Shown: in pieces, positions 3,058 to 29,259 of the stretch
How the letters are laid out: each line of letters opens with the position of its first letter
Position numbering within the stretch: position 1 is the stretch's first letter
Made by a program: the position numbers and the translations under genes
The notes under the pieces: generated by a model
Databases searched by the model: none
The model's input: only the letters and a program-made list of their open reading frames with translations
Told to the model about the DNA's origin: nothing
Source of the DNA: an uncultured bacterium
GTDB taxonomy: Bacteria > Zixibacteria > MSB-5A5 > GN15 > FEB-12
Length of the DNA: 29,469 bases
Assembly (NCBI GenBank): GCA_965372795.1
Contig: CBDVDR010000027.1
Coordinates: 1-29,469, forward strand
Reading direction: 5' to 3'

Positions 3058-3070
3058 ATTGAATTAAAAA

Positions 3071-4102: not shown

Positions 4103-4111
4103 AGGATAATT

Positions 4112-14007: not shown

Positions 14008-14094
14008 CTTTTTTATGCCTTTCAGAGCCTATAAATCCACCTGAAAATAATTGTTGATAATCAAGGGCTGAAATTGTACACTTACCTAAATATT

Positions 14095-15156
14095 ATGAGA
14101 AAAAGTAAAACTAATAAGAATGTTCTTATAACAGGCGGCGCGGGATTTATCGGGTCAAACCTGTTGTTACATATGGTTCCAAAATACAGCGATTATAATT
14201 TTATCAATATCGACTGTTTGACGTATGCGGCGAATTTATCGAATTTGAAAGCGATTGAGAATTGCGAGAATTACCGTTTTAAGAAGGTTGATATTCGGGA
14301 TATGGCAGGCTTGAGGACTGTATTTGAAGAGTTTGAGGTGGATTCTCTGATTCATCTGGCAGCGGAGTCTCATGTTGACCGGTCGATAGAGGGACCGGGG
14401 GATTTTATCACAACGAATATACTGGGGACGTTTAATCTTTTGGAGATTGCCAAAGAGAAGCATCTGGATGGGAAACCGTTCCGGTTTCATCATGTCTCGA
14501 CAGATGAAGTGTACGGGTCATTAGGGGATGAAGGATTTTTCACCGAAGCGACCTCTTATAAGCCGAACTCGCCCTATTCAGCCTCGAAAGCATCGAGTGA
14601 TCATTTGGTTCGGGCGTATCATAAGACCTATGGGTTGGATGTGGTTACGACGAATTGTTCGAATAATTATGGTCCTTATCAGTTTCCTGAGAAGTTACTG
14701 CCTTTGATGATAAAAAATTGTCAGGACCGAAAACCATTACCGGTTTATGGGGATGGGGAGAATGTGCGGGACTGGTTGTATGTTGAGGATCATTGTACGG
14801 CACTTGATCTGGTTTTTCATAATGGAGAAACAGGTCAGACTTATAATATCGGCGGACATAATGAGATATCGAATATCAAACTTATAAAGCTAATCTGTGC
14901 GGTGATGGATGAAAAACTTGGCGGGGCGAAACATGAGGAGTTGATTACGTTTGTGAAAGATCGTCCGGGACATGATAAAAGGTATGCGATTGATGCTTCT
15001 TTTATTGAAAAGGAACTGGGCTGGACGCCGAAGCATAATTTTACGAACGGTCTGAGAATGACAATTGAATGGTATTTGGACAATAATGAATGGCTGGATA
15101 ATTGCTGCAGTGGTAATTATTTGAAATATTACGAAGATATGTACGCAAATCGTTAG
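14095..15156 (+). CDS. rfbB: dTDP-glucose 4,6-dehydratase
   Basis: [49 protein letters not shown] and [12 protein letters not shown]. The start is uncertain (ATG 14095 or TTG 14074). Confidence 0.96.
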
Positions 15157-15163
15157 GGTATAG

Positions 15164-16057
15164 ATGTCAGATAAGAAAACTAAAGGAATTATATTAGCCG
15201 GTGGAAGTGGGACGCGGTTGTATCCGATCACCGAGGTTGCCTGTAAACAATTGCTGCCGATATATGACAAGCCGATGATTTATTATCCGCTGTCGACACT
15301 TATGGAATGCGGAGTTCGGGATGTTTTGATAATATCTACTCCTAAAGATCTGCCTCAAATAAAGCAGTTGTTTAAATCAGGGGCTGATTTAGGGATTAAT
15401 ATTGAATATAAAGTTCAGGACAAACCGGCCGGGATCGCCCAGGCATTTTTGATCGGGAAAGAATTTATCGGTAATGATGATGTGATGCTGATTTTGGGTG
15501 ATAATATTTTTTATGGTGCAATAGATTATCAAAAGTATGTTGGAGATTTTGAAGGCGGAGCCCTGGTGTTCGGCTATAAAGTTAATGATCCGGAGCGATA
15601 CGGGGTCGTTGAGTTTAAAGAAAATGGCAGTGTTGTTTCAATTGAAGAAAAACCTATCAAAGCCAAATCAAATTATGCCGTTACCGGACTTTATCTTTAT
15701 GATTCAAAAGTTGTAAGTATCGCTGAAAATTTGAAGCCATCCAATCGGGGCGAACTGGAAATTACAGATGTCAATAATGCTTATCTAAAGTTGAATAAAC
15801 TAAAGGTTGTGAAACTTGGAAGAGGCATTGCCTGGCTTGATACCGGAACTCAGGAAAGTATGCTTGATGCGGGTGAGTTTATTGCAACGATTGAAAAACG
15901 TCAAGGACAGAAAATCGCCTGTATTGAAGAGATCGCCTTTAAAATGAATTATATCGACCAGTTGCAACTTCAGCAAATCATAGATAAAATGAATGACAAC
16001 TCATCATACAAGCAATATTTGAGAACCGTGTTGTTAGATGCCAATGGGTTATTCTAA
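15164..16057 (+). CDS. rfbA: Glucose-1-phosphate thymidylyltransferase
   Basis: GIILAGGSGTRLYP, KQLLPIYDKPMIYYPLS, LGDNIF, EEKP, RGELEITD and WLDTGT. Confidence 0.97.
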   Translation: MSDKKTKGIILAGGSGTRLYPITEVACKQLLPIYDKPMIYYPLSTLMECGVRDVLIISTPKDLPQIKQLFKSGADLGINIEYKVQDKPAGIAQAFLIGKEFIGNDDVMLILGDNIFYGAIDYQKYVGDFEGGALVFGYKVNDPERYGVVEFKENGSVVSIEEKPIKAKSNYAVTGLYLYDSKVVSIAENLKPSNRGELEITDVNNAYLKLNKLKVVKLGRGIAWLDTGTQESMLDAGEFIATIEKRQGQKIACIEEIAFKMNYIDQLQLQQIIDKMNDNSSYKQYLRTVLLDANGLF

Positions 16058-16928
16058 GTTACTAATAACGGGTTGTCGCGGTCAATTAGGTTCTGACCTG
16101 GTCAAATTACTTTCTTCTGCTTATGAAATATACGGTATTGATCAGGAAGAGGCTGATATCACAGCCTATGATAAAGTTCAAGATCATTTTAAGAAATTTA
16201 ATCCGGATATAGTTATTCATGCCGCAGCCTATACTGATGTGGACGGATGCGAATCCAATCGGGAATTAGCCTATTCAATTAATGAGACCGGGACAGAGAA
16301 TATTGCAAAATTATGTCAGGAACATCAGGCGTCGCTGATATATTATTCAACTGATTATGTTTTTGATGGTGAGAATGAAAATCCATATTTGGAATCTGAC
16401 CTTCCCAATCCCAAAACGGTTTATGGTCAAAGCAAACTTGCCGGAGAGAAGGTCATTGAGAAATATTTGGATAAGTTTGCAATATTACGCCTTGCCTGGG
16501 TCTACGGTATCAACGGTAATAACTTTGTTAAGACAATGATCCGACTGGCTCTAAAAAACAGCCGATCAAATTCTAACAAATTGAGGGTTGTTAATGATCA
16601 GTTTGGATCGCCAAGCTGGACCGAACAGATTGTTACACAAACTGAAGCGGTAATAAAGAGTGATTTGACCGGTCTGTTTCATTGTACTGCTGAAGGATCA
16701 ACAAATTGGTATGAATTTGCCAGACTAATATTTGAAGAGCTTTCTTTAGAAGTTATGATTGAACCCTGCAGCTCGAATGAGTATAAACGTCCGGCGCCCC
16801 GTCCTAAATATTCAGTATTAGAAAATAGTGAATTTAAGAATAAAAATTTGAATTTGATGCAAGATTATGATAACGCTCTTAAAGAGTTTATCAAAATAAA
16901 CAGGGAGAAACTTTTGAATGAACTGTAA
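16038..16928 (+). CDS. rfbD: dTDP-4-dehydrorhamnose reductase
   Basis: TGCRGQLG, AAYTDVDGCE, STDYVFDG, YGQSKLAGE, VNDQFGSP and APRP.YSVL. Confidence 0.95.
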   Translation: MPMGYSKLLITGCRGQLGSDLVKLLSSAYEIYGIDQEEADITAYDKVQDHFKKFNPDIVIHAAAYTDVDGCESNRELAYSINETGTENIAKLCQEHQASLIYYSTDYVFDGENENPYLESDLPNPKTVYGQSKLAGEKVIEKYLDKFAILRLAWVYGINGNNFVKTMIRLALKNSRSNSNKLRVVNDQFGSPSWTEQIVTQTEAVIKSDLTGLFHCTAEGSTNWYEFARLIFEELSLEVMIEPCSSNEYKRPAPRPKYSVLENSEFKNKNLNLMQDYDNALKEFIKINREKLLNEL

Positions 16929-17385
16929 TATAGATGATGTCGTAATTAAAGAGATACAGAAATTTTCAGATGAACGCGGCTGGTTAATGGAATTATATCG
17001 ACAGGATGAAATTGAGGCTGAATTTATGCCGGTGATGAGTTATGTATCATTGACCAAGCCGGGCGTTGCTCGTGGTCCTCATGAGCATCGTGATCAGGCT
17101 GATTGTTTTGCATTTATCGGTCCATCGACCTTCAGGTTGTATTTGTGGGATAATCGTGAGGGTTCAAACACTTTTGGAGAAAAGTATACAGCTGACCTGG
17201 GTGAATCTAATCCGGCAATGGTAATTGTGCCCAAGGGCGTGGTTCATGCTTATAAAAATATTGGTGAAATTGACGGTATAGTTTTTAATGCGCCTAATCG
17301 GTTGTTTGCCGGGCAGGGTAAGAAAGAGCCGGTTGATGAAATCAGACATGAAGAGAGCGATTCATCACAATTCAAAATTGATTAG
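16918..17385 (+). CDS. rfbC: dTDP-4-dehydrorhamnose 3,5-epimerase family cupin (short RmlC type)
   Basis: DERGWLME, PGVARGPHEH, LWDNREGSNTFG and VPKGVVHAY. Follows rfbBAD. Confidence 0.85.
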   Translation: MNCNIDDVVIKEIQKFSDERGWLMELYRQDEIEAEFMPVMSYVSLTKPGVARGPHEHRDQADCFAFIGPSTFRLYLWDNREGSNTFGEKYTADLGESNPAMVIVPKGVVHAYKNIGEIDGIVFNAPNRLFAGQGKKEPVDEIRHEESDSSQFKID

Positions 17386-17405: not shown

Positions 17406-18545
17406 TTGAGCGATAAAAGTAAAAAAACAGTCGCCTTTTGCGGCTCTCGTGGAATTCCGCCCAAGTATGGCGGGTTTGAAACGGTTGTTGATGAAATTTC
17501 GAAACGGTTTATTGAAAAAGGATATTCAACCGAGGTCTTCTGTCGACGGTCATCTTATAGTAATCAGCTGGATTCTTATAACGGTAACAGGCTGATTTAT
17601 GTTAATGGGAGTAAACGCAGGAAACTTGACACGGTGGTTTCCTCGATCCAAACGGGGTTGTATATATTAAAAAATCGTAAACAATATTCATTTGTCTTCT
17701 GGTATAACAATGCAAATTTCCCCGGTATAATGTTGACTCTGTTAGCCGGAATTCCAATGGCGATTAATACTAATGGTCTTGAGTGGCGCCGTGAAAAATG
17801 GTCATTTATGTTTAAGGCTTATTATTTTATTTCAACTTATTTAATTAGCAAGTTGTGTAAAACATTAATTTCTGATTCAAACGGTATTTGTGATTATTAC
17901 AAAGAGAAATTTAACAAGCGAAGCCAATTTATACCTTACGGGGTTTATGCTCCTGATGAAGTAGCGAGTGATAGAGTTGATGAAATTTTAAATAAATATG
18001 GATTGTCTAAAAGTAAATTTTTTCTTCAAGTTACTCGACTTGAACCTGATAATTACCCATTAGAAGCAGCCCGAGCCTTTCAAAAATCAGGTCTTGGTGA
18101 AAAGGGTTATCGGTATGTGGTGATTGGTTATCAAAATTCTTATCCATATTCTGACAGCTTAAAAAAAATAGATAATCAGGATGGGGTTATGGTTTTGGAT
18201 GCGATTTATGATCAGGAGATTCTGGCAGCATTAAGAGCCAGCTGTTTTTGCTATGTTCATGGTAATCATGTGGGCGGAACTAATCCGGCGTTACTTGAGG
18301 CGATGATCTCCTGTCCCCGAGTGATATCGGTTGATATTTCGTTTAATCGGGAAGTATTGGGGGAAACAGGATTTTTCTTTAAGATTGGAAATCTTGATAT
18401 TCTGATGAATAAGATACTCAATGAACCTGATCTGTCTGATAAAATGAAAGCAAGGGCTGAGAGTCATTATCGCTGGGATGCGGTTTCAGACAGTTATATG
18501 CGGGTTGCTCAGGGTTTGGATGCGGATTATAATTCTCAATCATAA
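17406..18545 (+). CDS. GT4 glycosyltransferase (DUF1972/RgpA/Cps2T-like), probable rhamnosyltransferase
   Basis: GSRGIPPKYGGFET, NTNGLEWRREKW, RLEPDN and YVHGNHVGGTNPALLEAM. Lies directly after the rml genes. TTG start. Confidence 0.8.
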   Translation: MSDKSKKTVAFCGSRGIPPKYGGFETVVDEISKRFIEKGYSTEVFCRRSSYSNQLDSYNGNRLIYVNGSKRRKLDTVVSSIQTGLYILKNRKQYSFVFWYNNANFPGIMLTLLAGIPMAINTNGLEWRREKWSFMFKAYYFISTYLISKLCKTLISDSNGICDYYKEKFNKRSQFIPYGVYAPDEVASDRVDEILNKYGLSKSKFFLQVTRLEPDNYPLEAARAFQKSGLGEKGYRYVVIGYQNSYPYSDSLKKIDNQDGVMVLDAIYDQEILAALRASCFCYVHGNHVGGTNPALLEAMISCPRVISVDISFNREVLGETGFFFKIGNLDILMNKILNEPDLSDKMKARAESHYRWDAVSDSYMRVAQGLDADYNSQS

Positions 18546-18595: not shown

Positions 18596-19387
18596 ATGCA
18601 ATTAGATAAACAAAAAATATTACAAGATAAAGACTGCTTTATATTAGATTTTGATGGGACCGTATTTCTAGGTGACACTCCGATTGCCGGAACAGTTTCA
18701 TTTATAAAAAAATATAAAAAAGAAAAAGATTTTTATTTTTTAAGTAATAACACATCTAAAGTGCCATCTGATTATATAAGTAAATTAAATCAGGTTGGGA
18801 TTGAAGTTGATGAGTCTCATATTATAACACCCTATTTATCGCTATTAATCTATTTATCTGCTAATAATATTTCCCAAACCTATTTATTGGGGAATAATAA
18901 ATTTTCGGAGTTACTTATTCAAAAGAGTTCGGGGATTTCATTCGATAACAATGCCAAAGATTGTCAGGCTGTGATTGTTGCCTTTGATAATGAATTAACT
19001 TATCAAAAATTGGAACAGGCTTGTTTGCTGCTTCATAATTTGAAGATTAAATTTATAGCTACTCATTGTGATAAGGTTTGTCCGACAGAGAAAGGTGATA
19101 TCCCAGATGTAGGCAGTTTTTTATCATTAATTGAAACAGCAACCGGAAGAAAGCCTGATATGGTTTTGGGCAAGCCTGATCCTTCGATGATTGAATCAAT
19201 TATGTCAAAATATCAAAAAGAAAAAATTGTTCTGGTTGGGGACCGGTTGTATACTGATAAATTATTAGCAGAGAAAACAGATATCGATTTTATTCTGGTG
19301 TTGAGTGGTGAGACAAAGAGAGAAAATGTTGCAGTTGATCAATACTATAATTATGCAATATTTGAAGACTTAAGTAAATTACTATGA
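18596..19387 (+). CDS. HAD-IIA (NagD-like) phosphatase
   Basis: LDFDGT, LSNN, GKPD, VGDRLYTD and VLSGET motifs. Confidence 0.88.
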   Translation: MQLDKQKILQDKDCFILDFDGTVFLGDTPIAGTVSFIKKYKKEKDFYFLSNNTSKVPSDYISKLNQVGIEVDESHIITPYLSLLIYLSANNISQTYLLGNNKFSELLIQKSSGISFDNNAKDCQAVIVAFDNELTYQKLEQACLLLHNLKIKFIATHCDKVCPTEKGDIPDVGSFLSLIETATGRKPDMVLGKPDPSMIESIMSKYQKEKIVLVGDRLYTDKLLAEKTDIDFILVLSGETKRENVAVDQYYNYAIFEDLSKLL

Positions 19388-19455: not shown

Positions 19456-20223
19456 TTGAAATACTTGTTTTTGATACAAGCCAGGACCGGTTCCACGAGG
19501 TTTCCCAATAAAGTTTTATCTTTAGTTAATGATAAATATAATCTAATAGAATTAGTTTATTTCAGAACTCTTTTGTCAAAGAGTGCAACACCAGAGAATA
19601 CGGTTATTTTAACATCTGACAATAGATCAGACGATAAACTTGTAGAATTTCTTGATACTAAAAATATTCTTTATGCCAGGGGAGATGAAGATAATGTCTA
19701 TGGCAGGTTTTATAATTATCTCAATTCCATAGAAAAGAAACCGGAATATATCATAAGAATTTGTGGAGATAATCCATTCCTTGAACCCTTATTTATTGAT
19801 GAGATGATCAAATACTTAGAAGAGAGTCAAGACAAAGAGAGTGATTATTTATCGTTCGAAACCTCAGATAATATTCCGGTAATTCTTTCACACTTTGGAT
19901 TCTTTTGTGAAATCATTAAATATAATTCCTTTATGAAAGCCAATTCAATAATCAGAAATGCAGCTCAAAAAGAGCATGTAACTCCTATTTTTTACAATAC
20001 CAGCTTCTTTAAATCAAAATTATTACCAATTAGTGATGAATTAAATAATAAAAAATTTAGATTTACTATAGACACAGAATCAGATTTACATATAATTAAA
20101 ACAATATTAAAAAAAATTGAAAACATAGAATTCAGTTATATGGATGTTTTACAAATTGTAAAAGAAAAGAAAGCATTAGTTGATCTGATGAGTAAAAATA
20201 TAATTGAGAATGAAAAGAAATAA
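19456..20223 (+). CDS. SpsF-like cytidylyltransferase (CMP-nonulosonate synthetase family)
   Basis: IQARTGSTRFPNKVL, RGDEDNVYGRF, IRICGDNPF, EHVTP and RFTIDTESDL. Confidence 0.85.
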   Translation: MKYLFLIQARTGSTRFPNKVLSLVNDKYNLIELVYFRTLLSKSATPENTVILTSDNRSDDKLVEFLDTKNILYARGDEDNVYGRFYNYLNSIEKKPEYIIRICGDNPFLEPLFIDEMIKYLEESQDKESDYLSFETSDNIPVILSHFGFFCEIIKYNSFMKANSIIRNAAQKEHVTPIFYNTSFFKSKLLPISDELNNKKFRFTIDTESDLHIIKTILKKIENIEFSYMDVLQIVKEKKALVDLMSKNIIENEKK

Positions 20224-20227
20224 TATA

Positions 20228-21277
20228 ATGGAACCAACTTACATAATTGCTGAAATTGGTCAAAATCATAATGGTGATATCGAATTGGCTAAAAAGTTAA
20301 TTGATATGATTGCTATGCCGGTTTTTGATAAATTTAATAATTGCCAACTTCGGCCGGTTGATGCTGTAAAGTTTACTAAAAGAGATTTGTCGGAAGAACT
20401 TACAGCGGAACTTAATGCTCAACCATACGATTCGCCTCATTCGTTTGGGACAACGTATGGCGAACATCGGGAGAAGCTGGAATTTACATACGAACAATAT
20501 ATAGAAATTGAAAAGTATGTCAGAGACAAAGGGCTTGATTTTATTGTTACTCTATGTTCACCAAAGACCTTAAAACTGGTTGATATGATTAAGATTGATA
20601 AGATCAAAGTAGCATCGAGGGATTTAACAAATATACCGTTACTTGAGAAAATAGCCGAGACTAAGATTCCAGTAATATTTTCAACCGGAATGAGCGGTTT
20701 GGATGAGATTTGTGATGCTATAGAAATTATCGAAAAATTTCATTCTGATATAACAATTTTGCACTGTATTTCTCAATACCCCGCCGAATATAAAAATATC
20801 AATCTTAAAGCTATTGAAGTTTTAAATAAAAAGTTTGACGGAAAATATAAGATTGGATATTCGGATCACTCAATCGGAATTATGGCTCCTGTGTTAGCCT
20901 TGGGTTTTGGCGCTACGGTAATTGAAAAGCATGTGACGCTCAGCCATACTATGAAAGGGTCTGATCATGCTGGTTCGTTGGAGCTTGATGGTTTGTGGCG
21001 CATGACAAGAGATATCAGGAATGCCGAGTTGGCGGTAGGTGATGGAAATTTGGATATTTCAGACGCTGCTTTGGGAGCGATGAAAAAATTAAGGCGATCT
21101 TTAGCGGTAAATGTTGATCTTGAGCAGGGGGATATTTTAACTGAAGAGAATTTGACCATGTTAAGTCCGGGAACCGGTTTGCGCTGGCATGATCGAAACA
21201 GTATTATCGGAAAAAAAGCCAAGCAGAAAATTTCTCAGAGTACTTTAGTTGATGCTTCAATGTTTGAGACAACATGA
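20228..21277 (+). CDS. NeuB-family nonulosonic acid synthase with C-terminal SAF domain; resembles the KDN-9-phosphate synthase type
   Basis: IIAEIGQNHNG, DAVKFTKRDL, SPHSFG.TYGEHR, KVASRDLTN, STGM, LHCISQYP, GYSDH, IEKH, GSDH and SPGTG. ATG 20228 is preferred over TTG 20204. Confidence 0.9.
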   Translation: MEPTYIIAEIGQNHNGDIELAKKLIDMIAMPVFDKFNNCQLRPVDAVKFTKRDLSEELTAELNAQPYDSPHSFGTTYGEHREKLEFTYEQYIEIEKYVRDKGLDFIVTLCSPKTLKLVDMIKIDKIKVASRDLTNIPLLEKIAETKIPVIFSTGMSGLDEICDAIEIIEKFHSDITILHCISQYPAEYKNINLKAIEVLNKKFDGKYKIGYSDHSIGIMAPVLALGFGATVIEKHVTLSHTMKGSDHAGSLELDGLWRMTRDIRNAELAVGDGNLDISDAALGAMKKLRRSLAVNVDLEQGDILTEENLTMLSPGTGLRWHDRNSIIGKKAKQKISQSTLVDASMFETT

Positions 21278-21933
21278 TCAGGGGGATTTTATACGATTTA
21301 GGGGATATCTTCTTTGAAGCCCATTACTGGCGAAAATGGATGTATGAGAAGTTGTGTGAGGGTAATTATTTTTCCGGCACTTTTTATGAATTTTATAATC
21401 TGTATGAAAGCTATCTGGTTGATGTATACGAGGGGAATTCTACTTATTTAGATCAATATTTTGCATTTCTTGCCTTTTTAAAGGTTGATGGTCCCAAAAA
21501 ATTTCAAAAGGAATCCTTTGAGAAAAAGGTTTATTTTGAGGAGCATCGGTCTCTTTTTGCGGGCGTGAAGGAGACACTTGAGATATTGAAACAAAAAGAT
21601 ATTAAAAATATCGTAATAACTGACAATGAACTATCTGAGCAGGAAGTCAGGTCGTTGGTTATTGAGAAGTTTGAGATAAATCATTTATTGGACACTGTTA
21701 TAACGTCCAAAGATGCAAAAATGACAAAACCTGACCCCAAAATATTCGATTTAGCCTTAAATAACGCCGATCTTTCAATGGAAGAGACGATATTTGTTGC
21801 CCATGATAAAGATGAAATAGACGGCGCCAAATTAGCCGGTTTAAAAGTAGTTGAATTTAATAATTATCTAAAAATTGATACAAAAGCTGATTTTAAAATT
21901 GATTGTTTCCAAAAATTGTTAGATTTTATTTAG
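21274..21933 (+). CDS. HAD-IA family hydrolase with atypical motif I (DLGD)
   Basis: ILYDLGDIFF, VITDN, KPDPKIF and FVAHDKDEIDGAKLAGL. ATGA overlap with the synthase stop. Confidence 0.8.
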   Translation: MIRGILYDLGDIFFEAHYWRKWMYEKLCEGNYFSGTFYEFYNLYESYLVDVYEGNSTYLDQYFAFLAFLKVDGPKKFQKESFEKKVYFEEHRSLFAGVKETLEILKQKDIKNIVITDNELSEQEVRSLVIEKFEINHLLDTVITSKDAKMTKPDPKIFDLALNNADLSMEETIFVAHDKDEIDGAKLAGLKVVEFNNYLKIDTKADFKIDCFQKLLDFI

Positions 21934-21970
21934 GATATGAAGTTCTGATAAAAACTTATAAAAATTGGCT

Positions 21971-23230
21971 ATGAAAATATTAAAATCATCAGCAGTGTAT
22001 TTGGTTGCTTCTTTAATTAATCGAGCAATTCCTTTTCTAATATTGCCAGTCCTGACAAGGTATCTGAATCCATACGAGTATGGCGTTTTAGCTATTTATC
22101 AGGTGATGATTTTGTTTGTAAGCCCTTTAGTTGATTTTAATATCAGCCAAAATATAATCAGGTCTTATTTTAAAAAATCAAAATCGGAATTGGCGGAGTA
22201 TCTTTCTAATATATTTCTGATTTTATTTTCTTCATTCAGCATCATCATCGTAATAATTTCGATTCTGCTGATGTTTTTTCAGGAATTCTTTGGCGTCCCC
22301 GGTAAGTGGATTATTGTTCTTCCATTGATAGCCTTTATGAATATGGTTAATAAGTGTAATCTGGTGATATTTATTCAGGAGAATAAACCTTTTAGGTTGA
22401 GTATTTTTGAGATGGCTTATGTTATTATCAATATTCTGGTAAGCTTATTGTTAATAATTCAATATGATTTTGGGTGGGAGGGAAGAGCCACTGGCATTTT
22501 GATTTCTTCTATTACAATGGGTATCGTTTCGTTATTATACATGAGAAAGAAAAAGCTTTTAAAATTTAAAATTCAAATGGATTCAATTAAGGAGATTTTA
22601 AAAATTTCCCTGCCATTGATCCCTCATAGGATAGGCTTGGTTTTAATAAATATAACCGACCGCATTTTTATTGACAGAATGATCGGTAAAGAATTGGTCG
22701 GTATCTATGAAGTAGGTTTTAAATTCGGCATGATTACTTTGTTGTTTGCTGATGCTTTTATCAGATCCTGGTCCCCCTGGTTTTATAAATATTTGAATTC
22801 ACCTAATCCTGATAAATTATTAATAGTAAAATATTCTTACTATTTTATAATAGGTATTTTTATTGTATCTTTTGGAGTAACATTTGGAACAAATCTAATC
22901 TTTGATTTCATGGTTGATCCTCAATTTAGTGATTCAAAAATGTTTATCGTTTGGATATCTTCTGGATATGCCGTCAGGGGTATTTATCAAATTATGTTGT
23001 TATACTTGATTCATACCGGACAGACAAAATTTCTGGCAATCAACACTTTATTTGCTGCTATCCTAAACATGATCTTTAATTATTATATGATTAACGCCAA
23101 CGGTGCAATTGGTGCCGCTCAGGCAACTTTGATTGCTTATTTTGTGATGTCGTGCGGGTGCTGGTGGTATGCTAACAAGTCCTTTAAGATGCCGTGGTTT
23201 AATTTTAAATGGATAACGGCGAAGAGATAA
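21971..23230 (+). CDS. wzx: Wzx-type polysaccharide flippase
   Basis: About 12 TM segments. FLILPVLTRYLNPYEYG, PLIPH...TDRIFI...VGIY and GAIGAAQATLIAY. Confidence 0.88.
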   Translation: MKILKSSAVYLVASLINRAIPFLILPVLTRYLNPYEYGVLAIYQVMILFVSPLVDFNISQNIIRSYFKKSKSELAEYLSNIFLILFSSFSIIIVIISILLMFFQEFFGVPGKWIIVLPLIAFMNMVNKCNLVIFIQENKPFRLSIFEMAYVIINILVSLLLIIQYDFGWEGRATGILISSITMGIVSLLYMRKKKLLKFKIQMDSIKEILKISLPLIPHRIGLVLINITDRIFIDRMIGKELVGIYEVGFKFGMITLLFADAFIRSWSPWFYKYLNSPNPDKLLIVKYSYYFIIGIFIVSFGVTFGTNLIFDFMVDPQFSDSKMFIVWISSGYAVRGIYQIMLLYLIHTGQTKFLAINTLFAAILNMIFNYYMINANGAIGAAQATLIAYFVMSCGCWWYANKSFKMPWFNFKWITAKR

Positions 23231-24546
23231 TGAAAACTATAAAAGATATTTGCGAACAAATTTGGATTCTCGAAGAAAAACACAATCTTCTTGATTTCGA
23301 GATAGACGGTGTGAAGATTTGGCAATTTATACGGATGGAGATATTTTTTAATATTGCTCAAGCAACAAAGGTTATTGAAGCACCACAATTTGTTAAAAAA
23401 GGATTTGTCGATAAGGTTAAAAGTTTTGTTCCATATTTGATAAAAGCTCTTTTTCAAAATCCATTATATGGCAACAAAAATGCGGATGTATTAATTTTTG
23501 ATCACGAAAGACATAAAAGGGTTCAAGGTGAAAATATTGATATTTACACTGAGTTCCTGATTCGGGATTTAAAAAAGCAAAAGGTTAACTTTCTGGTTAT
23601 GGAACGGCCTTATTTACGGAAGCATTTTAAGATAAAAAACTCTTATAGGAAATATTTAGATGCTTTTATGATCTACAGCTATTTTAAAAGAAAACTCTCA
23701 AATTATAAATTATCTCAAGAGAAGCTGGGCTTTGTTACTAAGTTAAACAATGAACTAAATTCTATATTCAGAATAAAATTGGATTTACCGATGATGTTTG
23801 AGCATCATGTTCAAAGGTTCAATATCAATTATGAACTTTTCTCGATATTATTAAAAAAGCGAAACCCTAAACAGATATTTATAGTTGTAAATTATGGTCA
23901 GGGTGATTTGATCAAGGCTGCTAAGGACTTGGGAGTTGAAGTTATCGAACTTCAACATGGTACGATCTCGAAGTATCATTTAGGGTATAGTTATCCTAAT
24001 GCAAAAGTACCATTAGATTATTTCCCCGATAAACTTCATGTCTGGAATGAATTTTGGAAGGATATAATCAAATATCCAATCCCTGACCAAGATATAGTTG
24101 TAAAAGGATTTTCTTTTTTTAATCAGCAAAAAGATAGATATGCAACTAATAAAAAAATAGACAATCAAATAATAGTTTTGTCTCAGGGTTCAATTGGCAA
24201 TCAAATGAGTGAGATTATTTTAGAAAACTATCAGTTTTTAAAAGATTATATAATAATTTACAAATTACACCCGGGAGAATATACCCGATGGCAGAATTAC
24301 AAAGCATTAGTCGAATTATCAAAATTTGATAATGTGACAATTGTAAAAGATAGTGATCTATACGAGTTATTCTCATTTTCAAAATATCAAATCGGTGTTT
24401 ATTCAACAGCAATTTATGAAGGATTGGAGTTTGATTGTCAGACGGTGCTGCTTGAATTACCGGGTGTGGAATATATGGATAAATTACTTGAAACAAAAAG
24501 AGCTGTACTTTTGAAGGATTTTGTTCGTGAAAATACTGTTTCTTAA
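23230..24546 (+). CDS. Putative nonulosonic-acid (sialyl/KDN) transferase, GT-B fold
   Basis: ELQHG, KLHPGE and YSTAIYE resemble the HP and S(S/T) motifs of CMP-sugar-using bacterial transferases. Adjacent to the synthase/cytidylyltransferase module. TAATG coupling to wzx. Confidence 0.55.
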   Translation: MKTIKDICEQIWILEEKHNLLDFEIDGVKIWQFIRMEIFFNIAQATKVIEAPQFVKKGFVDKVKSFVPYLIKALFQNPLYGNKNADVLIFDHERHKRVQGENIDIYTEFLIRDLKKQKVNFLVMERPYLRKHFKIKNSYRKYLDAFMIYSYFKRKLSNYKLSQEKLGFVTKLNNELNSIFRIKLDLPMMFEHHVQRFNINYELFSILLKKRNPKQIFIVVNYGQGDLIKAAKDLGVEVIELQHGTISKYHLGYSYPNAKVPLDYFPDKLHVWNEFWKDIIKYPIPDQDIVVKGFSFFNQQKDRYATNKKIDNQIIVLSQGSIGNQMSEIILENYQFLKDYIIIYKLHPGEYTRWQNYKALVELSKFDNVTIVKDSDLYELFSFSKYQIGVYSTAIYEGLEFDCQTVLLELPGVEYMDKLLETKRAVLLKDFVRENTVS

Positions 24547-25714
24547 TACAACCTATTATCCTAATGTCTTTGGCGGGGCGGAACGATCCACCCAGCATCT
24601 GGCTGAAAGTTTGGCAGAAATGGGTCATCAGGTAATTGTTGTTACCTTGGGTGATAAGTATAAAATTGAAATTCATAACAAAGTTAAAGTATATTACCTT
24701 CCAGTTTTTAATCTGTATCTTCCTTTTGACAATCGCCCTTCTATTTTGACCCGTTTATTTTGGAATATTATTAATATTTACAATCCGATAATGGGGAAGA
24801 GAGTTAAAAAGATTGTTGAGACTGAAAAGCCTGATATTGTTAACACCAATACCCTTCTTGGTTTTAGTTGTTCAGTCTGGAAAAATATTTCAAAATGTAA
24901 TATTCCTGTTGTTCATACAATTAGGGATCACCATCTGTTATGTCCTCGTACAACGATGTATAAAAATAATAGGAATTGTAATGAGCAATGTTTTTCCTGT
25001 AAGGTTTTTTGCAGATCAAATTTTAAAAATTCCAAATATGTTAATGCTGTTGTTGGTATTAGCCAATATGTTCTTAACAGGCATATAGAAACAGGTTGGT
25101 TTGCAGACGTTCCCAATCATGTTATTCACAATTCGTTCTCATTAAATGAGGTTGATACCACTTATGAAAAATCAAACGGTGTAGTTCGATTAGGATTTAT
25201 TGGACGGCTTTCGCCACAAAAGGGGATAGAGTACCTTCTTAGAGCATTTGCAAAGTCAAGTAAACACGATAAAGCTAAACTTCTGATAGCAGGTGAAGGG
25301 GAAGCTGGTTATGTTGACTACTTAAAAAGCAAATATAATAATTGCAAGGTCGAATTTCTTGGACGGGTTAAACAGCAGGAATTTTATAAATTAGTTGATG
25401 TTGTTGTAATTCCGTCGTTATTGAATGAAGCTCTGGGTCGTTCGATTCTGGAGGCTTATACTTTTGGAGTTCCAGTTATAGGAGCCAAAAGAGGTGGTAT
25501 AACAGAAATAATAGATGAAGGTGAAACCGGTTTTCTATTTGATCCTGATCGACCGGATGAATTGTCCGGTATAATAAAAAGTATTTTGGATACGCCAAAA
25601 ATATTAGATGATATGAAAGACAATTGTTTAAAAAGATCGAAAGATTTTTCGAATAATGTTATTTCTGAAAAGTATGTCAAAGTTTATTCGGGACTTTTGG
25701 GAGAGAAGAATTAA
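24527..25714 (+). CDS. GT4 glycosyltransferase
   Basis: YYPNVFGGAE, HTIRDHHLLCP with a Cys cluster, FIGRLSPQKG and EALGRSILEA (EX7E). GTG 24527 has an AAGGA SD. Confidence 0.9.
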   Translation: MKILFLNTTYYPNVFGGAERSTQHLAESLAEMGHQVIVVTLGDKYKIEIHNKVKVYYLPVFNLYLPFDNRPSILTRLFWNIINIYNPIMGKRVKKIVETEKPDIVNTNTLLGFSCSVWKNISKCNIPVVHTIRDHHLLCPRTTMYKNNRNCNEQCFSCKVFCRSNFKNSKYVNAVVGISQYVLNRHIETGWFADVPNHVIHNSFSLNEVDTTYEKSNGVVRLGFIGRLSPQKGIEYLLRAFAKSSKHDKAKLLIAGEGEAGYVDYLKSKYNNCKVEFLGRVKQQEFYKLVDVVVIPSLLNEALGRSILEAYTFGVPVIGAKRGGITEIIDEGETGFLFDPDRPDELSGIIKSILDTPKILDDMKDNCLKRSKDFSNNVISEKYVKVYSGLLGEKN

Positions 25715-25716
25715 GA

Positions 25717-26940
25717 GTGAATCAATTTTACAATAAATTATTTATCTATTACTCAGCTCTTATATTTTTACCTGCGATTTACCGGCTGGTGCTGCCACCC
25801 TCACTTGGTGATTTAAGTTATTATATAATTGCATTTTTGTTTCCATTATTAATTTTTATTTATTATTTCATCAATCACAAAATTAATATTTCAATCTTAT
25901 ATTCTTTTTTAAGCATAATTAGTGTTATAACGATCTCTTTAATGCTTTCCTGGATGAATCCTTCAATCGGACATATAACCTGGTTTACGACGATTCAAGG
26001 ATTTAAATATTACTTAGTACCCATGTTAATATTTTTTGCCGGTTATCAATTTGGCGGTAATGTTGACAGGCAAAAACTTTTGAATACAATTATTGCAATA
26101 TTTGTCATTCAACTTTTGTTTTCGCTAATATTTTATTATGAAATTATTCAAAATCCGATTTATAACGAATTTTCTGATTTATACCGGGAAAACTGGGTTG
26201 TTACCACCGGAGAATACAAAGCTTTTACCGGCTTGACTCTTTCAAAATTCAGTTTAGCTTATCAAGTTGGTTTTATAGTAATATTTATGTTACTTTTAAA
26301 AGATAATTATAATTTTGACCGATTTAAGTATTTAACAGTACTGGTGATTGGTTTTATAATTGTAGTCTTTACCTTTAATAAAACGATCATGGTTGTCATT
26401 CTAATTACAATTTCCTACTTAATTTTTAAATACACAAAAGTGAAATCGAAAGCCATCGGTTTTACCGTGATGCTTATTTTATTAACCGGAATTGTGTACA
26501 GTGGACTTCTGTTTTTCACCGGAGAATTGAATCTATTTGAAATTTATAAATTTTTATCACCCAGTACGTTTTTCTCCCGGATAGATCGCTGGCAGGAATA
26601 TTTTCAATTTGACCTGTTAAGTATTTTAGCGGGCAAAGGCGCCGGGTATTTTGATCAAAATAATATCACTCTTGATAATCAATTTCTATATACTTATTTA
26701 GAAATGGGACTATTTGGTTTTTTGATTTATTTTGCTTCATTTTTCTATTTTTTATATTATTTTTCACCGAAAAATTATATTTTCCGAATGACTGTTCTAA
26801 TTTTACTGATGATATTTGTAGGGGGAGATATGCTTGGTTTGCCAGTCATTATGTATGTGATAGGAATATATTTTGGACAGTCAAATCAGAATGAGAGTCT
26901 GCCGGGTAAAAAAGTGAAATTGATTAGTCATGCGAATTAA
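25717..26940 (+). CDS. wzy: Wzy-type O-antigen polymerase / ligase-like membrane protein
   Basis: About 11-12 TM segments. SRIDRW...GKGAG...DNQFLYTYLEMGLFG is a Wzy_C-like motif. Very AT-rich and inside a wzx locus. Confidence 0.7.
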   Translation: MNQFYNKLFIYYSALIFLPAIYRLVLPPSLGDLSYYIIAFLFPLLIFIYYFINHKINISILYSFLSIISVITISLMLSWMNPSIGHITWFTTIQGFKYYLVPMLIFFAGYQFGGNVDRQKLLNTIIAIFVIQLLFSLIFYYEIIQNPIYNEFSDLYRENWVVTTGEYKAFTGLTLSKFSLAYQVGFIVIFMLLLKDNYNFDRFKYLTVLVIGFIIVVFTFNKTIMVVILITISYLIFKYTKVKSKAIGFTVMLILLTGIVYSGLLFFTGELNLFEIYKFLSPSTFFSRIDRWQEYFQFDLLSILAGKGAGYFDQNNITLDNQFLYTYLEMGLFGFLIYFASFFYFLYYFSPKNYIFRMTVLILLMIFVGGDMLGLPVIMYVIGIYFGQSNQNESLPGKKVKLISHAN

Positions 26941-26961
26941 TACAAATATGAGAATTAATTG

Positions 26962-27972
26962 ATGAGTTCAGATATAAAAGTTTCGATAGCGGTGGTTGTG
27001 ATGGAATATCAGATTCAGTATTTGGATAAGCTGATCGCCTCAATTGAAAACCAATCGCATAGAAATATCGAAGTCGTTTTAATAGATAAATCAAAAGATG
27101 GAATTGTTAGTAATTATATTGTCGGGAAGAATTATAATTCAGCCTTTAATGTAATAATATTTCCACAGCCGGGCGGATTTGCCGAGAATTACAATAGAGC
27201 AATCCGGGAAAGTAGCGGCGAATTTATATTTGTGTTGAATCTGGACACATATTTAGAACCTGACTGTATTGAAAAGTTGATTGAGGCAATGGCAATTAAC
27301 AAGCAGATTGGGTGTGTGTCGCCAAAGATAATCAGAATGGATGAAGATTTTCAAGTTTACAATCCAAAAATATTCGATTCAACCGGAATGTATCTTACCA
27401 AATATCTCAGACATCATGATCGTGGCGCCGGTGAAGTCGATGCCGGACAATTTGATGATCTCTGTTATGTTTTTGGAGTGACGGGAGCGGCGGCATTTTT
27501 CCGGAAAGAATGTCTTGATGACATTAAAATTGAAGATCAGTATTATGATGAAAATTTCTGGTCTTATCGTGAAGATGCTGATTTATCCTGGAGACTTCAA
27601 AACTATGGCTGGGTTTGTTTGTATCAACCGGAAGCGGTTGTAAATCATGTAAGAACTTTGAAGCCCGGTAAACGTTCGCTGAATTCCAGAAAAGCGAATA
27701 TGCATAGTGTGAAGAATCGATATTTGTTGCTGTTTAATAACATATCGTTAACTAATTATTTTAAATATTTTATATTTATATTTCTGAGAGACATCGTTGT
27801 TATTGGCGGTGTTGTGATTAAAGAACAGTATTCGTTAGAAGCTTTTTATCTTTTAGGGAAAAATTTCAAGCAGTATTTGAAGAAAAGGAAACATAACAAA
27901 TTGATGTCAAAAGCTGACAGGTGTGCCTTTTGGTTCAAACATAAAGAAGTTTCTCTCACTGATAAAGTGTGA
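26962..27972 (+). CDS. GT2 glycosyltransferase (rhamnosyltransferase-like)
   Basis: GFAENYN, VLNLDT, GVTGAAAFFR and FWSYREDADLSWR. Confidence 0.88.
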   Translation: MSSDIKVSIAVVVMEYQIQYLDKLIASIENQSHRNIEVVLIDKSKDGIVSNYIVGKNYNSAFNVIIFPQPGGFAENYNRAIRESSGEFIFVLNLDTYLEPDCIEKLIEAMAINKQIGCVSPKIIRMDEDFQVYNPKIFDSTGMYLTKYLRHHDRGAGEVDAGQFDDLCYVFGVTGAAAFFRKECLDDIKIEDQYYDENFWSYREDADLSWRLQNYGWVCLYQPEAVVNHVRTLKPGKRSLNSRKANMHSVKNRYLLLFNNISLTNYFKYFIFIFLRDIVVIGGVVIKEQYSLEAFYLLGKNFKQYLKKRKHNKLMSKADRCAFWFKHKEVSLTDKV

Positions 27973-28158: not shown

Positions 28159-29259
28159 ATGAGAAATTCTTATAATAATAACGACGATTTTCCTAATTTA
28201 GGGCGTGAAGGCTCAAGTGAGATAACTTATCGGAATAATGAGATCAGTATTTTTGAGCTTGGTTCTTTGTTGTTAAATAAACGTAAACTTTTTTATTATA
28301 TAATGGTGCCGGTATTTCTGCTTTCGATTGTCATTCTGTTATTAACACCTAATAAATATGTTTCATCTGCTTCTATTTTACCATCGGGTCAGGTAGATAA
28401 ATTTTCGGAATTAAAGTCATTTGCGGGGCTGGGATCATTTTCATCGAGTAATGAAAATTCTTCGGAATTATATCCGATCATATTAAAATCGAATCAGATT
28501 AAAACATCACTTCTTGAAAAATCATATTTATTCAAAGATGGCGATAAGGAATCACAAATTACTCTTGATGAATATTTTGGTATTGAACTGATTGAGAGAG
28601 ATAAATTGTTTGCGGCGATTGGGAACCTTGCCGAGATAACTGTCGATAAAAAGACGGGTGTTATTAAAATTGCAATCGAGACGGAGTCACCTGAATTTTC
28701 TCAAGCGATTCTTGAGCAATATATAATCGAACTTGAAAATTTTAATACTAATAAGCGCCGGACCCATGCTAAGGATAATGTTAAGTATTTAACCAAACAG
28801 TTGAAGATAAAAAAAGATGAATTAGAGATATCTCAGAACAATATGCAGCAATTTCAATTAACTAATAGAGATTGGGTGATTTCGACAGATCCATATATAA
28901 TATCACAATTAGCACAGTTTAAATTAGATTTGGAAATGAAAGTTGCAGCTTATACATTTTTGAATAAAGAATATGAATTAGCCAAGTTTGAGTCTCAAAA
29001 GGATACTCCAATTGTACAGTTATTAGATCATCCCTCGCTGCCAACGCAAAAATCGGGACCATTCCGGCTTTTGATATTAATATTGATTTTAATTTCCACC
29101 TTTGCAGTGACATTAATTTCAACTTTGACTTATGATATCTTAAAAAAAAAGGATGATTTGTTAAAGGACGTATATTATAAAAATTTAAAAAGTGATTTTT
29201 CAGCATCATTTCCAAGAATTAACCGAATAGTATCGAAAAGTTTGAAAAAAATGGTCTGA
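28159..29259 (+). CDS. wzz: Wzz/GNVR-type polysaccharide chain-length determinant (co-polymerase)
   Basis: N-terminal TM followed by Y.SSASILP, a coiled-coil periplasmic region, and Pro-rich LLDHPSLPTQKSGPFR before the C-terminal TM. No kinase domain. Confidence 0.8.
   Translation: MRNSYNNNDDFPNLGREGSSEITYRNNEISIFELGSLLLNKRKLFYYIMVPVFLLSIVILLLTPNKYVSSASILPSGQVDKFSELKSFAGLGSFSSSNENSSELYPIILKSNQIKTSLLEKSYLFKDGDKESQITLDEYFGIELIERDKLFAAIGNLAEITVDKKTGVIKIAIETESPEFSQAILEQYIIELENFNTNKRRTHAKDNVKYLTKQLKIKKDELEISQNNMQQFQLTNRDWVISTDPYIISQLAQFKLDLEMKVAAYTFLNKEYELAKFESQKDTPIVQLLDHPSLPTQKSGPFRLLILILILISTFAVTLISTLTYDILKKKDDLLKDVYYKNLKSDFSASFPRINRIVSKSLKKMV

Follow-up and report, generated by a model that had tools for sequence, protein, structure and literature searches.

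Bacterial CMP-sialic-acid transferases are GT-B enzymes with HP and S(S/T) motifs that bind CMP, and retaining ulosonic-acid transferases carry a QxxxD motif. Little is known about the transferases that handle bacterial nonulosonic acids other than Neu5Ac: in the open literature we found no characterised bacterial KDN transferase, and for Pse and Leg only genetic evidence for the Tannerella enzymes, plus the GT118 Pse transferase KpsS1. According to Tomek et al. (2017, PMC5420450), the Tannerella forsythia protein Tanf_01245 / TFUB4_00887 / BFO_1060 (NF046086) is needed genetically for terminal nonulosonate addition. The retaining ulosonic-acid transferases described in PMC12887879 include KpsS/KpsC (GT107, PF05159), WbbB (GT99), KpsS1 (GT118), and KrkA (GT140).

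We analysed a 29,469-nucleotide stretch of DNA from an uncultured bacterium (hereafter the window), in which the original prediction had placed a candidate gene for an unclassified sialyl/KDN-transferase. This gene, whose product is referred to below as the candidate, lies within a surface-polysaccharide locus composed of the following genes:

14074..17385, forward strand: rmlB, rmlA, rmlD, and rmlC, for dTDP-L-rhamnose synthesis
17406..18545, forward strand: GT4/DUF1972 glycosyltransferase, Cps2T-like rhamnosyltransferase
18596..19387, forward strand: HAD-IIA hydrolase, putative second phosphatase of the cassette
19456..20223, forward strand: CTP_transf_3 cytidylyltransferase, CMP-nonulosonate synthetase (PF02348, E 1.1e-19)
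20204..21277, forward strand: NeuB-family synthase, probably of the KDN-9-phosphate synthase type (PF03102)
21274..21933, forward strand: HAD-IA phosphatase, candidate nonulosonate-9-phosphate phosphatase (PF13419; TIGR02253-like, below cut-off)
21965..23230, forward strand: Wzx flippase (PF01943), translationally coupled to the candidate
23230..24546, forward strand: candidate CMP-nonulosonate (KDN) glycosyltransferase, GT-B (from translation, homologues, AlphaFold2 model, and fold matches)
24521..25714, forward strand: GT4 glycosyltransferase, overlapping the candidate's stop
25717..26940, forward strand: Wzy-like polymerase (weak Wzy_C match, below cut-off)
26959..27972, forward strand: GT2 glycosyltransferase
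28159..29259, forward strand: Wzz-like chain-length determinant

The start of the HAD-IA phosphatase gene (21274) overlaps the neuB stop, and the other three transferases of the locus were GT4, GT4, and GT2, as predicted. A ROK kinase gene lies further upstream (12489-13463), with a glucokinase-like best match and weaker NanK matches. A polysialyltransferase-like polymerase role for the candidate was rejected because the locus has its own Wzx, Wzy, and Wzz.

Translation of the candidate gene gives 438 aa followed by a stop codon, with ELQHG starting at residue 240, KLHPGE at 345, and YSTAIYE at 391. The protein had been described as soluble and coupled to wzx, and both statements hold: its highest 19-residue Kyte-Doolittle window reaches only 0.82, so that no transmembrane segment is predicted, and the end of wzx shares one base with the candidate's ATG at 23230 (TAATG). 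Starting at an alternative in-frame ATG (23209) would lengthen the protein to 445 aa; the 23230 start is preferred because homologue N-termini line up with it. At the other end, the stop codon (24544-24546) overlaps the downstream GT4 gene (start at 24521 or 24527). The open reading frame is a genuine gene rather than a chance one, given 933 matching proteins at E<=1e-3 (best E 2e-130) and a confident AlphaFold2 model (mean pLDDT 93.0, pTM 0.90); the candidate's profile was matched by 8238 cluster representatives.

Conservation was assessed in 147 sequences of 28-48% identity, and the conserved residues fall into four motifs:

23947..23961, forward strand: E240-L-Q242-H243-G244 loop, proposed to supply the catalytic base and lying where the alignment places the D/E-D/E-G motif (EEG in GT38)
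24181..24189, forward strand: S318-Q319-G320 loop, which follows the opening strand of the C-terminal Rossmann domain and lines up with SQ of GT38
24262..24279, forward strand: K345-L-H347-P348-G-E350, HP motif, proposed to stabilise the departing CMP phosphate, with KLHPKE as its GT38 counterpart in the alignment
24403..24420, forward strand: S392-T393-A-I-Y-E397, putative S-S/T type phosphate-binding motif, lining up with SSS of GT38, and a conserved Glu at the N-terminal end of a helix

E240, Q242, H243, S318, E350, S392, and E397 were invariant, Q319 was nearly so, and K345, L346, H347, P348, and T393 were conserved at 90% or more. The HP and S-S/T motifs of GT-B sialyltransferases, which the original prediction had cited, are therefore present in the candidate and invariant or nearly invariant among its relatives. 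H347 precedes S392-T393 by 45 residues, and in the polysialyltransferase MhPST (PMC5517516) the equivalent H291, whose role there underlies the one proposed for H347, precedes S339/T340 by 48. The canonical D/E-D/E-G motif was not found in the candidate, which has QHG at the aligned position, in a loop that follows strand 237-241 of the modelled N-terminal domain. Mean pairwise identity was higher in the C-terminal (donor) domain than in the N-terminal one (0.38 versus 0.30).

Comparison of the candidate with Pfam and NCBIfam models assigned no family, in agreement with the predicted lack of GT2 or GT4 signatures, and PDB sequence searches at E<=10, with the candidate alone or with a 30-sequence profile, returned nothing. 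In the protein atlas, all clusters returned were unnamed or labelled "capsule biosynthesis", apart from PF04464 and LIC12162 as minor labels. Even at E<=1, the candidate itself had no match among sialyltransferase models, NF046086, or TIGR04396; remote similarity was seen in its homologues. NF046086 (the BFO_1060 family of Tannerella Pse/Leg transferases) was matched by 14 of 29 homologues (best E 3.3e-10), with scores of 18-39.6 bits, where the cut-off is 200, and with matches confined to the C-terminal domain (profile positions ~200-325), and TIGR04396 (surface carbohydrate biosynthesis protein) by 5 of 30 members at <20 bits against a cut-off of 125. PF07388 (GT38) was matched weakly by 3 of 30 members; a Pfam scan of 100 of the 147 aligned sequences (E<=0.1) gave 5 such matches, one of them above the cut-off, and three homologues, including P0100/L007 (26.1) and P0233 (24.7), passed the gathering score of 23.3 bits. 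In the same scan, PF05159 (KpsS/KpsC) was matched by 4 of 100 representatives, with P0157 (21.9 bits) above the gathering score of 20, DUF6716 (a putative GT) by 16, and GT4-type models below threshold by a few. In the candidate, there was no match to PF07388 at E<=0.01 or E<=1, nor to PF05159, GT2, or GT4 models.

Profile comparisons with hhalign gave weak signals that were used for motif register only. Against a 10-sequence GT38 alignment, the family scored E 0.005 over 214 columns with a probability of only 7%, pairing ELQHGT with LIEEGT, LSQG with VSQRY, YKLHPGE with IKLHPKE, and GVYSTAIYEG with GLTSSSLVYA; the control against Epimerase_2 was not much worse (3.9%, E 0.011), and a single NeuS sequence gave 0.7%. 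Taken together, the weak sequence signals point toward CMP-ulosonate transferases, in a family that appears only distantly related to known sialyltransferases. The label "unclassified" was thus only partly right: no model matches the candidate, but among its homologues, some from Methanobrevibacter bear the NCBI name "sialyltransferase" and a few score above the Pfam GT38 threshold.

The AlphaFold2 model has the two-Rossmann GT-B fold of GT38, GT52, and GT80 sialyltransferases. Fold searches with Foldseek and VIA-align, using the whole model and the C-terminal domain alone, gave as best matches UDP-GlcNAc 2-epimerases, NeuC (PF02350), and PseG, level with polysialyltransferase, and because of this tie, structure does not decide function. 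No GT52, GT80, GT99, or GT118 structure was among the fold matches listed, which has no bearing on relatedness. The Foldseek check suggested in the original prediction therefore established the GT-B fold but, with generic GT-B matches only, did not separate a CMP-dependent transferase from a UDP-sugar epimerase or hydrolase.

A NeuB homologue lay within 8 kb of the family gene in 67 of 80 related loci and in the flanks of 56 of 63 loci of 12 kb or more, and the flanking DNA examined had none in 13 of the 80, including 7 of the 63 long ones. CTP_transf_3 and NeuB occurred together in all 10 loci scanned, and a Pfam Wzx in 9. Related loci already encode a PseG-like hydrolase domain (53 of 80) or a KDN-9-P phosphatase (5 of 80), and just 3 of 80 have Epimerase_2, so that the sugar pathway looks complete without the candidate family, while no other candidate is at hand for the transferase step. 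In an order-level sample of 61 genomes, the family was confined to two, the very two with the divergent NeuB subtype. A genome of a second genus (G039) carries the syntenic block CMP-transferase/NeuB/HAD-IA/Wzx/candidate, and its Wzx is 54% identical to that of the window. Two fused proteins (891 and 842 aa) consist of a candidate-type domain followed by a C-terminal GT4 domain, which mirrors the arrangement of the adjacent genes in the window. The family occurs next to NeuB-type synthases in Campylobacterota, Bacteroidota, Bacillota, Gammaproteobacteria, and Methanobrevibacter.

The GT-B fold, the HP and S-T motifs, the weak NF046086, GT38, and KpsS/KpsC similarity, the NeuB linkage, the synteny, and the GT4 fusions all support the proposed role, and we consider the candidate probably a CMP-nonulosonate transferase, plausibly a variant of a known enzyme kind. 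It would be a soluble or peripheral two-domain (GT-B) glycosyltransferase using CMP-nonulosonic acid supplied by the neighbouring cytidylyltransferase, NeuB-type synthase, and HAD phosphatase. The acceptor would be an undecaprenyl-diphosphate-linked repeat unit at the cytoplasmic face; Wzx would flip the finished unit and Wzy would then polymerise it. The catalytic roles and stereochemistry that we infer follow the inverting GT-B sialyltransferases. The C-terminal domain may bind CMP through the HP motif, in which H347 would stabilise the leaving phosphate, and through S392/T393, and the N-terminal E240-x-Q242-H243-G244 loop may provide the base, with H243 probably standing in for the Glu/Asp of D/E-D/E-G. 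Such a role would complete a coherent locus model, in which rhamnose and a KDN-type sugar are assembled via the Wzx/Wzy route.

The suggestion that the donor is CMP-KDN gained support from the cassette. The window NeuB scores below both the NeuB and PseI cut-offs and is 53% identical to the synthase of related locus L055 and about 51% to those of L009 and L031; the HADs adjoining the L009 and L055 synthases pass the cut-off of NF058599 (Bacteroides-type KDN-9-phosphatase). NeuC was not found in the genome (98.65% complete), whose only Epimerase_2 protein is WecB-type (300.6 bits), with a NeuC score of 67 against a cut-off of 235.9. The window cytidylyltransferase shares 33% identity with its counterpart in the KDN-type locus L009, the window phosphatase is a HAD-IA protein and not a Bacteroides-type KDN-9-P phosphatase, and the PDB matches obtained for this phosphatase, the cytidylyltransferase, and NeuB gave no pointer to sugar identity. 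In identity-based UPGMA clustering, the candidate grouped with Campylobacterota and Gracilibacteria homologues from PseF/PseG-type loci and not with KDN-type loci. Donor specificity is consequently not readable from the transferase sequence, and the KDN reading draws only on the window's own cassette. Overall, CMP-KDN may well be the donor, an assignment we make tentatively. It is also possible, although we are somewhat more doubtful here, that the candidate is the first identifiable bacterial CMP-KDN transferase, drawn from a very large family of nonulosonic-acid transferases (thousands of 50%-identity clusters in Bacteria and methanogenic Archaea) of which this member is unmatched by Pfam-A and NCBIfam, and in which an invariant Gln-His-Gly replaces D/E-D/E-G with His as the base.

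An enzyme of the same class could instead use Neu5Ac or another nonulosonate (e.g., through a ManNAc-6-phosphate, 9-phosphate route), or be promiscuous, which we regard as rather unlikely but as the most serious competitor. Homologues adjoin varied cassettes, from the prevalent PseF/PseG-like type to the few with a KDN-9-P phosphatase, with synthases above the NeuB cut-off in L011, L013, L016, and L021 and a true PseI in L076, and among Bacteroidota homologues that cluster closely, some come from KDN-type loci and others from canonical NeuB loci. The ROK kinase with its weaker NanK matches would also fit, as would a KDN-producing Serratia capsule that, according to PMC9000132, also contained Neu5Ac at about 1:20. 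Arguing for KDN are the resemblance of the window synthase to those paired with the KDN-9-P phosphatase equivalog and the lack of NeuC in the genome, and a Pfam scan of the locus found no aminotransferase, dehydratase, or N-acetyltransferase of a Pse/Leg route.

A GT-B transferase that does not use a CMP-nonulosonate, adding another sugar to the nonulosonate-bearing unit or acting as a TagF/TarL-like CDP-alditol phosphotransferase, is improbable. PF04464 (TagF-like CDP-alditol phosphotransferases) was matched by 1 of 100 representatives (E 0.032) and not by the candidate, a Pfam scan of the window found no CDP-glycerol or CDP-ribitol synthesis genes (TagD/TarIJ-type), and the strongest sequence signals are to families using CMP-ulosonates. 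Moreover, use of CMP-sugars is not known for GT4 or GT2, the families of the other three transferases, so that the nonulosonate would lack a transferase if the candidate were not one. Least probable is a NeuC/PseG-like NDP-sugar hydrolase or 2-epimerase feeding a hexose to the NeuB-type synthase: the top fold matches, the near absence of canonical Epimerase_2 from related loci and of NeuC from the genome, and the hhalign pairing of ELQHG with HVEAG (the catalytic EAG loop) and of HP with HP favour it, but most loci already hold a PseG-like domain, KDN-type loci take a phosphorylated route with a dedicated phosphatase and need no such enzyme, PF02350 was matched weakly by 4 of 100 representatives (best 15.3 bits against a gathering score of 30.6), by 0 of 30 members, and not by the candidate, PseG was absent from NCBIfam matches of 30 members at E<=1, fusions of the family with GT4 domains exist, its coupling to wzx is tight, and its N-terminal domain is the less conserved one, the opposite of the Epimerase_2 sample.

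Returning to the nonulosonate transferase, the family could, if the larger proposal is true, be the common "missing" transferase for KDN, the PseF/PseG-linked sugar, and Neu/Leg-type sugars. Confirmation would give thousands of "hypothetical proteins" a function, reveal a His-based variant of the sialyltransferase active site, and offer a donor-flexible enzyme for KDN and related sugars, useful in glyco-engineering.

Among known systems, UDP-GlcNAc 2-epimerases/NeuC and PseG are the best or equal-best structural matches and have the EAG/QHG loop and HP positions in common with the candidate, but it matches none of their models at cut-offs and differs in domain conservation pattern, fusion partners, and gene context. 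The QxxxD motif of the retaining ulosonic-acid transferases does not occur in the candidate, where the residue four after Q242 is Ile. The candidate resembles the Tannerella NF046086 enzymes in size (~440 aa), GT-B/TagB-like domain, HP-type motif, and location, theirs beside CMP-Pse/Leg genes and its own beside CMP-nonulosonate genes, while their glycan is a protein O-glycan rather than a Wzx/Wzy repeat unit. Their N-terminal domains are unrelated to it by sequence, and QHG replaces D/E-D/E-G in the candidate. In comparison with the GT38 polysialyltransferases (E. coli NeuS; Mannheimia MhPST, PDB 5WC6/5WCN; PF07388), the catalytic Glu of EEG becomes the His of QHG, and an extra N-terminal helical region of about 83 residues sets the candidate apart. 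Finally, GT38 enzymes belong to ABC-transporter capsule loci, whereas the candidate belongs to a Wzx/Wzy locus, and a single transfer rather than polymerisation is therefore to be expected of it.

Every sequence feature listed in the original prediction was recovered for the target gene, namely a soluble protein of 438 residues coupled to wzx, three motifs, and no GT2 or GT4 family, beside other transferases of the GT4, GT4, and GT2 families.

23230-24546, + strand: target open reading frame, translation of 438 residues

The ELQHG, KLHPGE, and YSTAIYE motifs start at residues 240, 345, and 391, respectively, and no hydrophobic stretch has the length to form a transmembrane helix (highest Kyte-Doolittle mean over 19 residues, 0.82). 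Pfam and NCBIfam returned no family for the protein and assigned the remaining transferases of the locus to GT4/DUF1972, GT4, and GT2. The target ATG shares one base with the wzx TAA stop (TAATG), and its own stop overlaps the start of the downstream GT4 gene. An alternative in-frame ATG upstream at 23209 is possible, but homologue N-termini match the 23230 start. No initiating phosphoglycosyltransferase (Bac_transf or WecA type) was found among the scanned open reading frames of the window, which is the entire contig C27 of its genome, so the polysaccharide locus probably either runs off the end of the contig or relies on priming from another site. Upstream of this locus (1786-5572) lies a glycogen-type set encoding an NTP_transf_4/hexapeptide protein, a GalT-like protein, and a GT5 glycogen synthase. 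The following open reading frames had no Pfam family at E<=1e-5; the 502-residue product has an HSLG stretch similar to the serine motif of lipases/esterases, and its C-terminus is hydrophobic.

83-1192, + strand: 369 residues
5586-7478, + strand: 630 residues
7872-8666, - strand: 264 residues
10525-12033, - strand: 502 residues

The target is a genuine gene and one member of a large family. At E<=1e-3, word-indexed searching returned 933 proteins (top 2e-130, 48% identity), nearly all named "hypothetical", with a few Methanobrevibacter proteins called "sialyltransferase" by NCBI and one UniRef entry called "capsule biosynthesis protein". When 1.84 billion cluster representatives were searched with the profile, 8238 matched at E<=1e-3, of which 1925 reached E<=1e-30. 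Genomes that carry the family come from Campylobacterota, Gammaproteobacteria, Bacteroidota, Bacillota, Deltaproteobacteria-type lineages, Spirochaetota, candidate phyla, and many Methanobrevibacter. Across 147 aligned sequences (28-48% identity to the target), E240, Q242, H243, S318, E350, S392, and E397 are invariant, while W31, R35, R94, D104, G244, H250, Y253, P266, Q319, K345, L346, H347, P348, and T393 are among the residues conserved in at least 90%.

Gene context is the strongest line of evidence for the transferase reading. Among 80 related loci examined over at most 8 kb per side, 67 carry a NeuB homologue (56 of 63 for loci of at least 12 kb), often just ~25 bp upstream of the target homologue in Methanobrevibacter. 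The flanks of the other 13 showed no NeuB; six of these are short fragments and seven are long (L005, L026, L028, L046, L050, L066, and L071). A Pfam scan of 10 diverse loci found a CTP_transf_3 cytidylyltransferase and NeuB in all 10 and Wzx in nine, frequently adjoining the target homologue.

Genes accompanying the target family in the related loci
PseF-like cytidylyltransferase: 58 of 80
PseG-like hydrolase domain, mostly fused to the PseF-like cytidylyltransferase: 53 of 80
Bacteroides-type KDN-9-phosphate phosphatase: 5 of 80
Epimerase_2: only 3 of 80

Since these loci hold a PseG-like hydrolase or a phosphatase, sugar activation is already supplied with its hydrolase or phosphatase, and the missing piece everywhere is the transferase for the CMP-sugar. 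Two longer proteins (891 and 842 residues) continue from the target domain into a C-terminal GT4 domain, mirroring the order of the target and downstream GT4 genes in the window. Most related loci (L002-L008 and L017-L080; e.g., L008:5252-7982 and L002:2252-6742) share a cassette comprising a ~540-580-residue PseF-like cytidylyltransferase/PseG-like hydrolase fusion, with both parts under equivalog cut-offs, a NeuB-type synthase under the NeuB and PseI cut-offs, and often a polysaccharide pyruvyl transferase and a hexapeptide acetyltransferase. No PseB/PseC-type genes were seen in their examined flanks, and the cassette, common in Methanobrevibacter, Campylobacterota, Gammaproteobacteria, and Bacillota, may represent a nonulosonate pathway that is still uncharacterised.

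Within a sample of 61 genomes of the window's order, NeuB occurs in 31 and the target family in two, the window's own genome and G039, which are exactly the two with a divergent NeuB subtype (229 and 235 bits); full-length NeuB matches elsewhere score ~272-306 bits. The syntenic G039 block adjoins rmlBADC and matches the window in cytidylyltransferase (41% identity), NeuB (66%), HAD-IA (43%), Wzx (54%), and target (44%). A different NeuB, scoring ~280-306 bits in most cases, occurs in 29 of the remaining 59 genomes; these have no target-family member and presumably use another kind of nonulosonate transferase.

The AlphaFold2 model of the target (30-sequence alignment; mean pLDDT, 93.0; pTM, 0.90) is that of a GT-B protein, with a predicted ~83-residue N-terminal helical region followed by two Rossmann-type domains. 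The proposed Foldseek comparison bore out the fold, as only GT-B proteins were matched in the PDB, but UDP-GlcNAc 2-epimerases and NeuC came first and the polysialyltransferase 5wcn ranked 24th. The modelled structure would thus fit a CMP-sugar transferase or a NeuC/PseG-type enzyme, leaning, if anything, slightly towards the latter. Mean pairwise identity in the target family is higher in the C-terminal (donor) domain than in the N-terminal domain (0.38 vs 0.30), the reverse of an Epimerase_2 sample (0.40 vs 0.54), a soft argument from small samples.

Sequence-family models, NF046086 and TIGR04396 included, did not match the target itself, but weak repeated signals came from its homologues. 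NF046086 ("BFO_1060 family glycosyltransferase") matched 14 of 29 homologues (best E, 3.3e-10), every time in the C-terminal domain and far under the 200-bit cut-off, and TIGR04396 matched five of 30. In available excerpts of PMC5420450, BFO_1060 is one locus tag of the Tannerella forsythia Pse/Leg-derivative transferases, whose deletion causes loss of the terminal nonulosonate.

Pfam matches among 100 family representatives (E<=0.1)
DUF6716 (putative glycosyltransferase): 16
PF07388 (GT38): 5, one above cut-off
PF05159 (KpsS/KpsC): 4, one above cut-off
Epimerase_2: 4, top 15.3 bits vs cut-off 30.6
Glyphos_transf: 1

The L007 homologue exceeds the PF07388 cut-off. So do matches in three control genomes, those of Bacteroides thetaiotaomicron, Methanocaldococcus jannaschii, and Methanosarcina acetivorans; these organisms are not known for polysialic acid, and the matches may be members of the target family or its sisters. 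Profile comparison with a 10-sequence GT38 alignment started from E. coli UTI89 neuS gave a probability of only 7% (E, 0.005; 214 columns), pairing ELQHGT/LIEEGT, LSQG/VSQRY, YKLHPGE/IKLHPKE, and GVYSTAIYEG/GLTSSSLVYA. An 11-sequence Epimerase_2 alignment, used as a control, gave 3.9% (E, 0.011; 172 columns), pairing ELQHG/HVEAG and HP/HP and ending ahead of the S-T block. These signals favour the CMP-ulosonate transferase side, though not decisively.

In the Mannheimia GT38 polysialyltransferase MhPST, as described in excerpts of PMC5517516, the CMP phosphate is stabilised by the HP-motif residue H291 and bound with the help of S339/T340, while E153, in a D/E-D/E-G loop between strand 5 and helix 5a, serves as the base. 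In the target model, H347-P348 are placed after strand 341-345, and S392-T393, which come after strand 384-389, begin helix 393-400; HP and S are 45 residues apart, compared with 48 in MhPST. Because the invariant Q242-H243-G244 comes after strand 237-241 and is paired with GT38 E-E-G in the alignment, H243 may act as the base, assisted by E240 and Q242. Transfer would be inverting, to an Und-PP-linked acceptor at the cytoplasmic face, before the unit is flipped by Wzx; the enzyme could also be retaining, like those of GT99/107/118/140 (PMC12887879, in excerpt).

The donor sugar is not readable from the transferase sequence, to judge from clustering: the target falls among homologues from PseF/PseG-type loci of Campylobacterota and Gracilibacteria, and a Bacteroidota cluster mixes KDN-type and canonical NeuB loci. 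The window synthase falls under both equivalog cut-offs (NeuB, 273 vs 400 bits; PseI, 219 vs 340 bits) and shares 53% identity with the synthase of L055 and ~51% with its L009 and L031 counterparts. HADs beside the L009 and L055 synthases pass the 180-bit cut-off of NF058599 ([quoted passage not shown]) with 241 and 259 bits, respectively; the window instead has a HAD-IA gene (21274-21933), whose start overlaps the synthase stop, and an upstream HAD-IIA gene. The latter (18596-19387), a second phosphatase-type gene, scores over the TIGR01460 subfamily cut-off; it is situated between the genes for the rhamnosyltransferase and the cytidylyltransferase and had no tblastn match in the G039 block. 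The 98.65% complete genome holds one true NeuB, one target copy, and one Epimerase_2 of WecB type, with no NeuC found, and Pfam detected no Pse/Leg-type dehydratase, aminotransferase, or N-acetyltransferase in the locus. Given the likeness to KDN-type synthases and the lack of NeuC and Pse/Leg-type genes, the best reading is a phosphorylated, NeuC-independent route of KDN type; a ManNAc-6-phosphate route to Neu5Ac is a conceivable alternative.

Taken together, the target is a well-supported candidate CMP-nonulosonate transferase, whose transferred sugar is probably KDN. No characterised bacterial KDN transferase was found in the open-access literature on bacterial KDN/Leg/Pse transferases, where the relevant groups are the Tannerella work, Maf flagellin enzymes, KpsS1 (GT118) and KrkA (GT140), and a B. 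subtilis study in which, by the excerpts available, the TagB-like SpsB is not the Leg transferase (PMC7439481). The S. marcescens KL1/KL2 KDN capsules depend on a NeuB fused to an isomerase-like domain, described as a sugar-phosphate isomerase/epimerase, and the available portion of that report names no transferase (PMC9000132). One related locus (L022:3496-5766) encodes a similarly fused, 756-residue NeuB that has a CBS/KpsF-like piece at its N-terminus and, at its C-terminus, a xylose-isomerase-like TIM barrel (AP_endonuc_2); the two architectures may be the same. As a candidate CMP-nonulosonate transferase, the target would be a divergent form of an enzyme kind that is already known.
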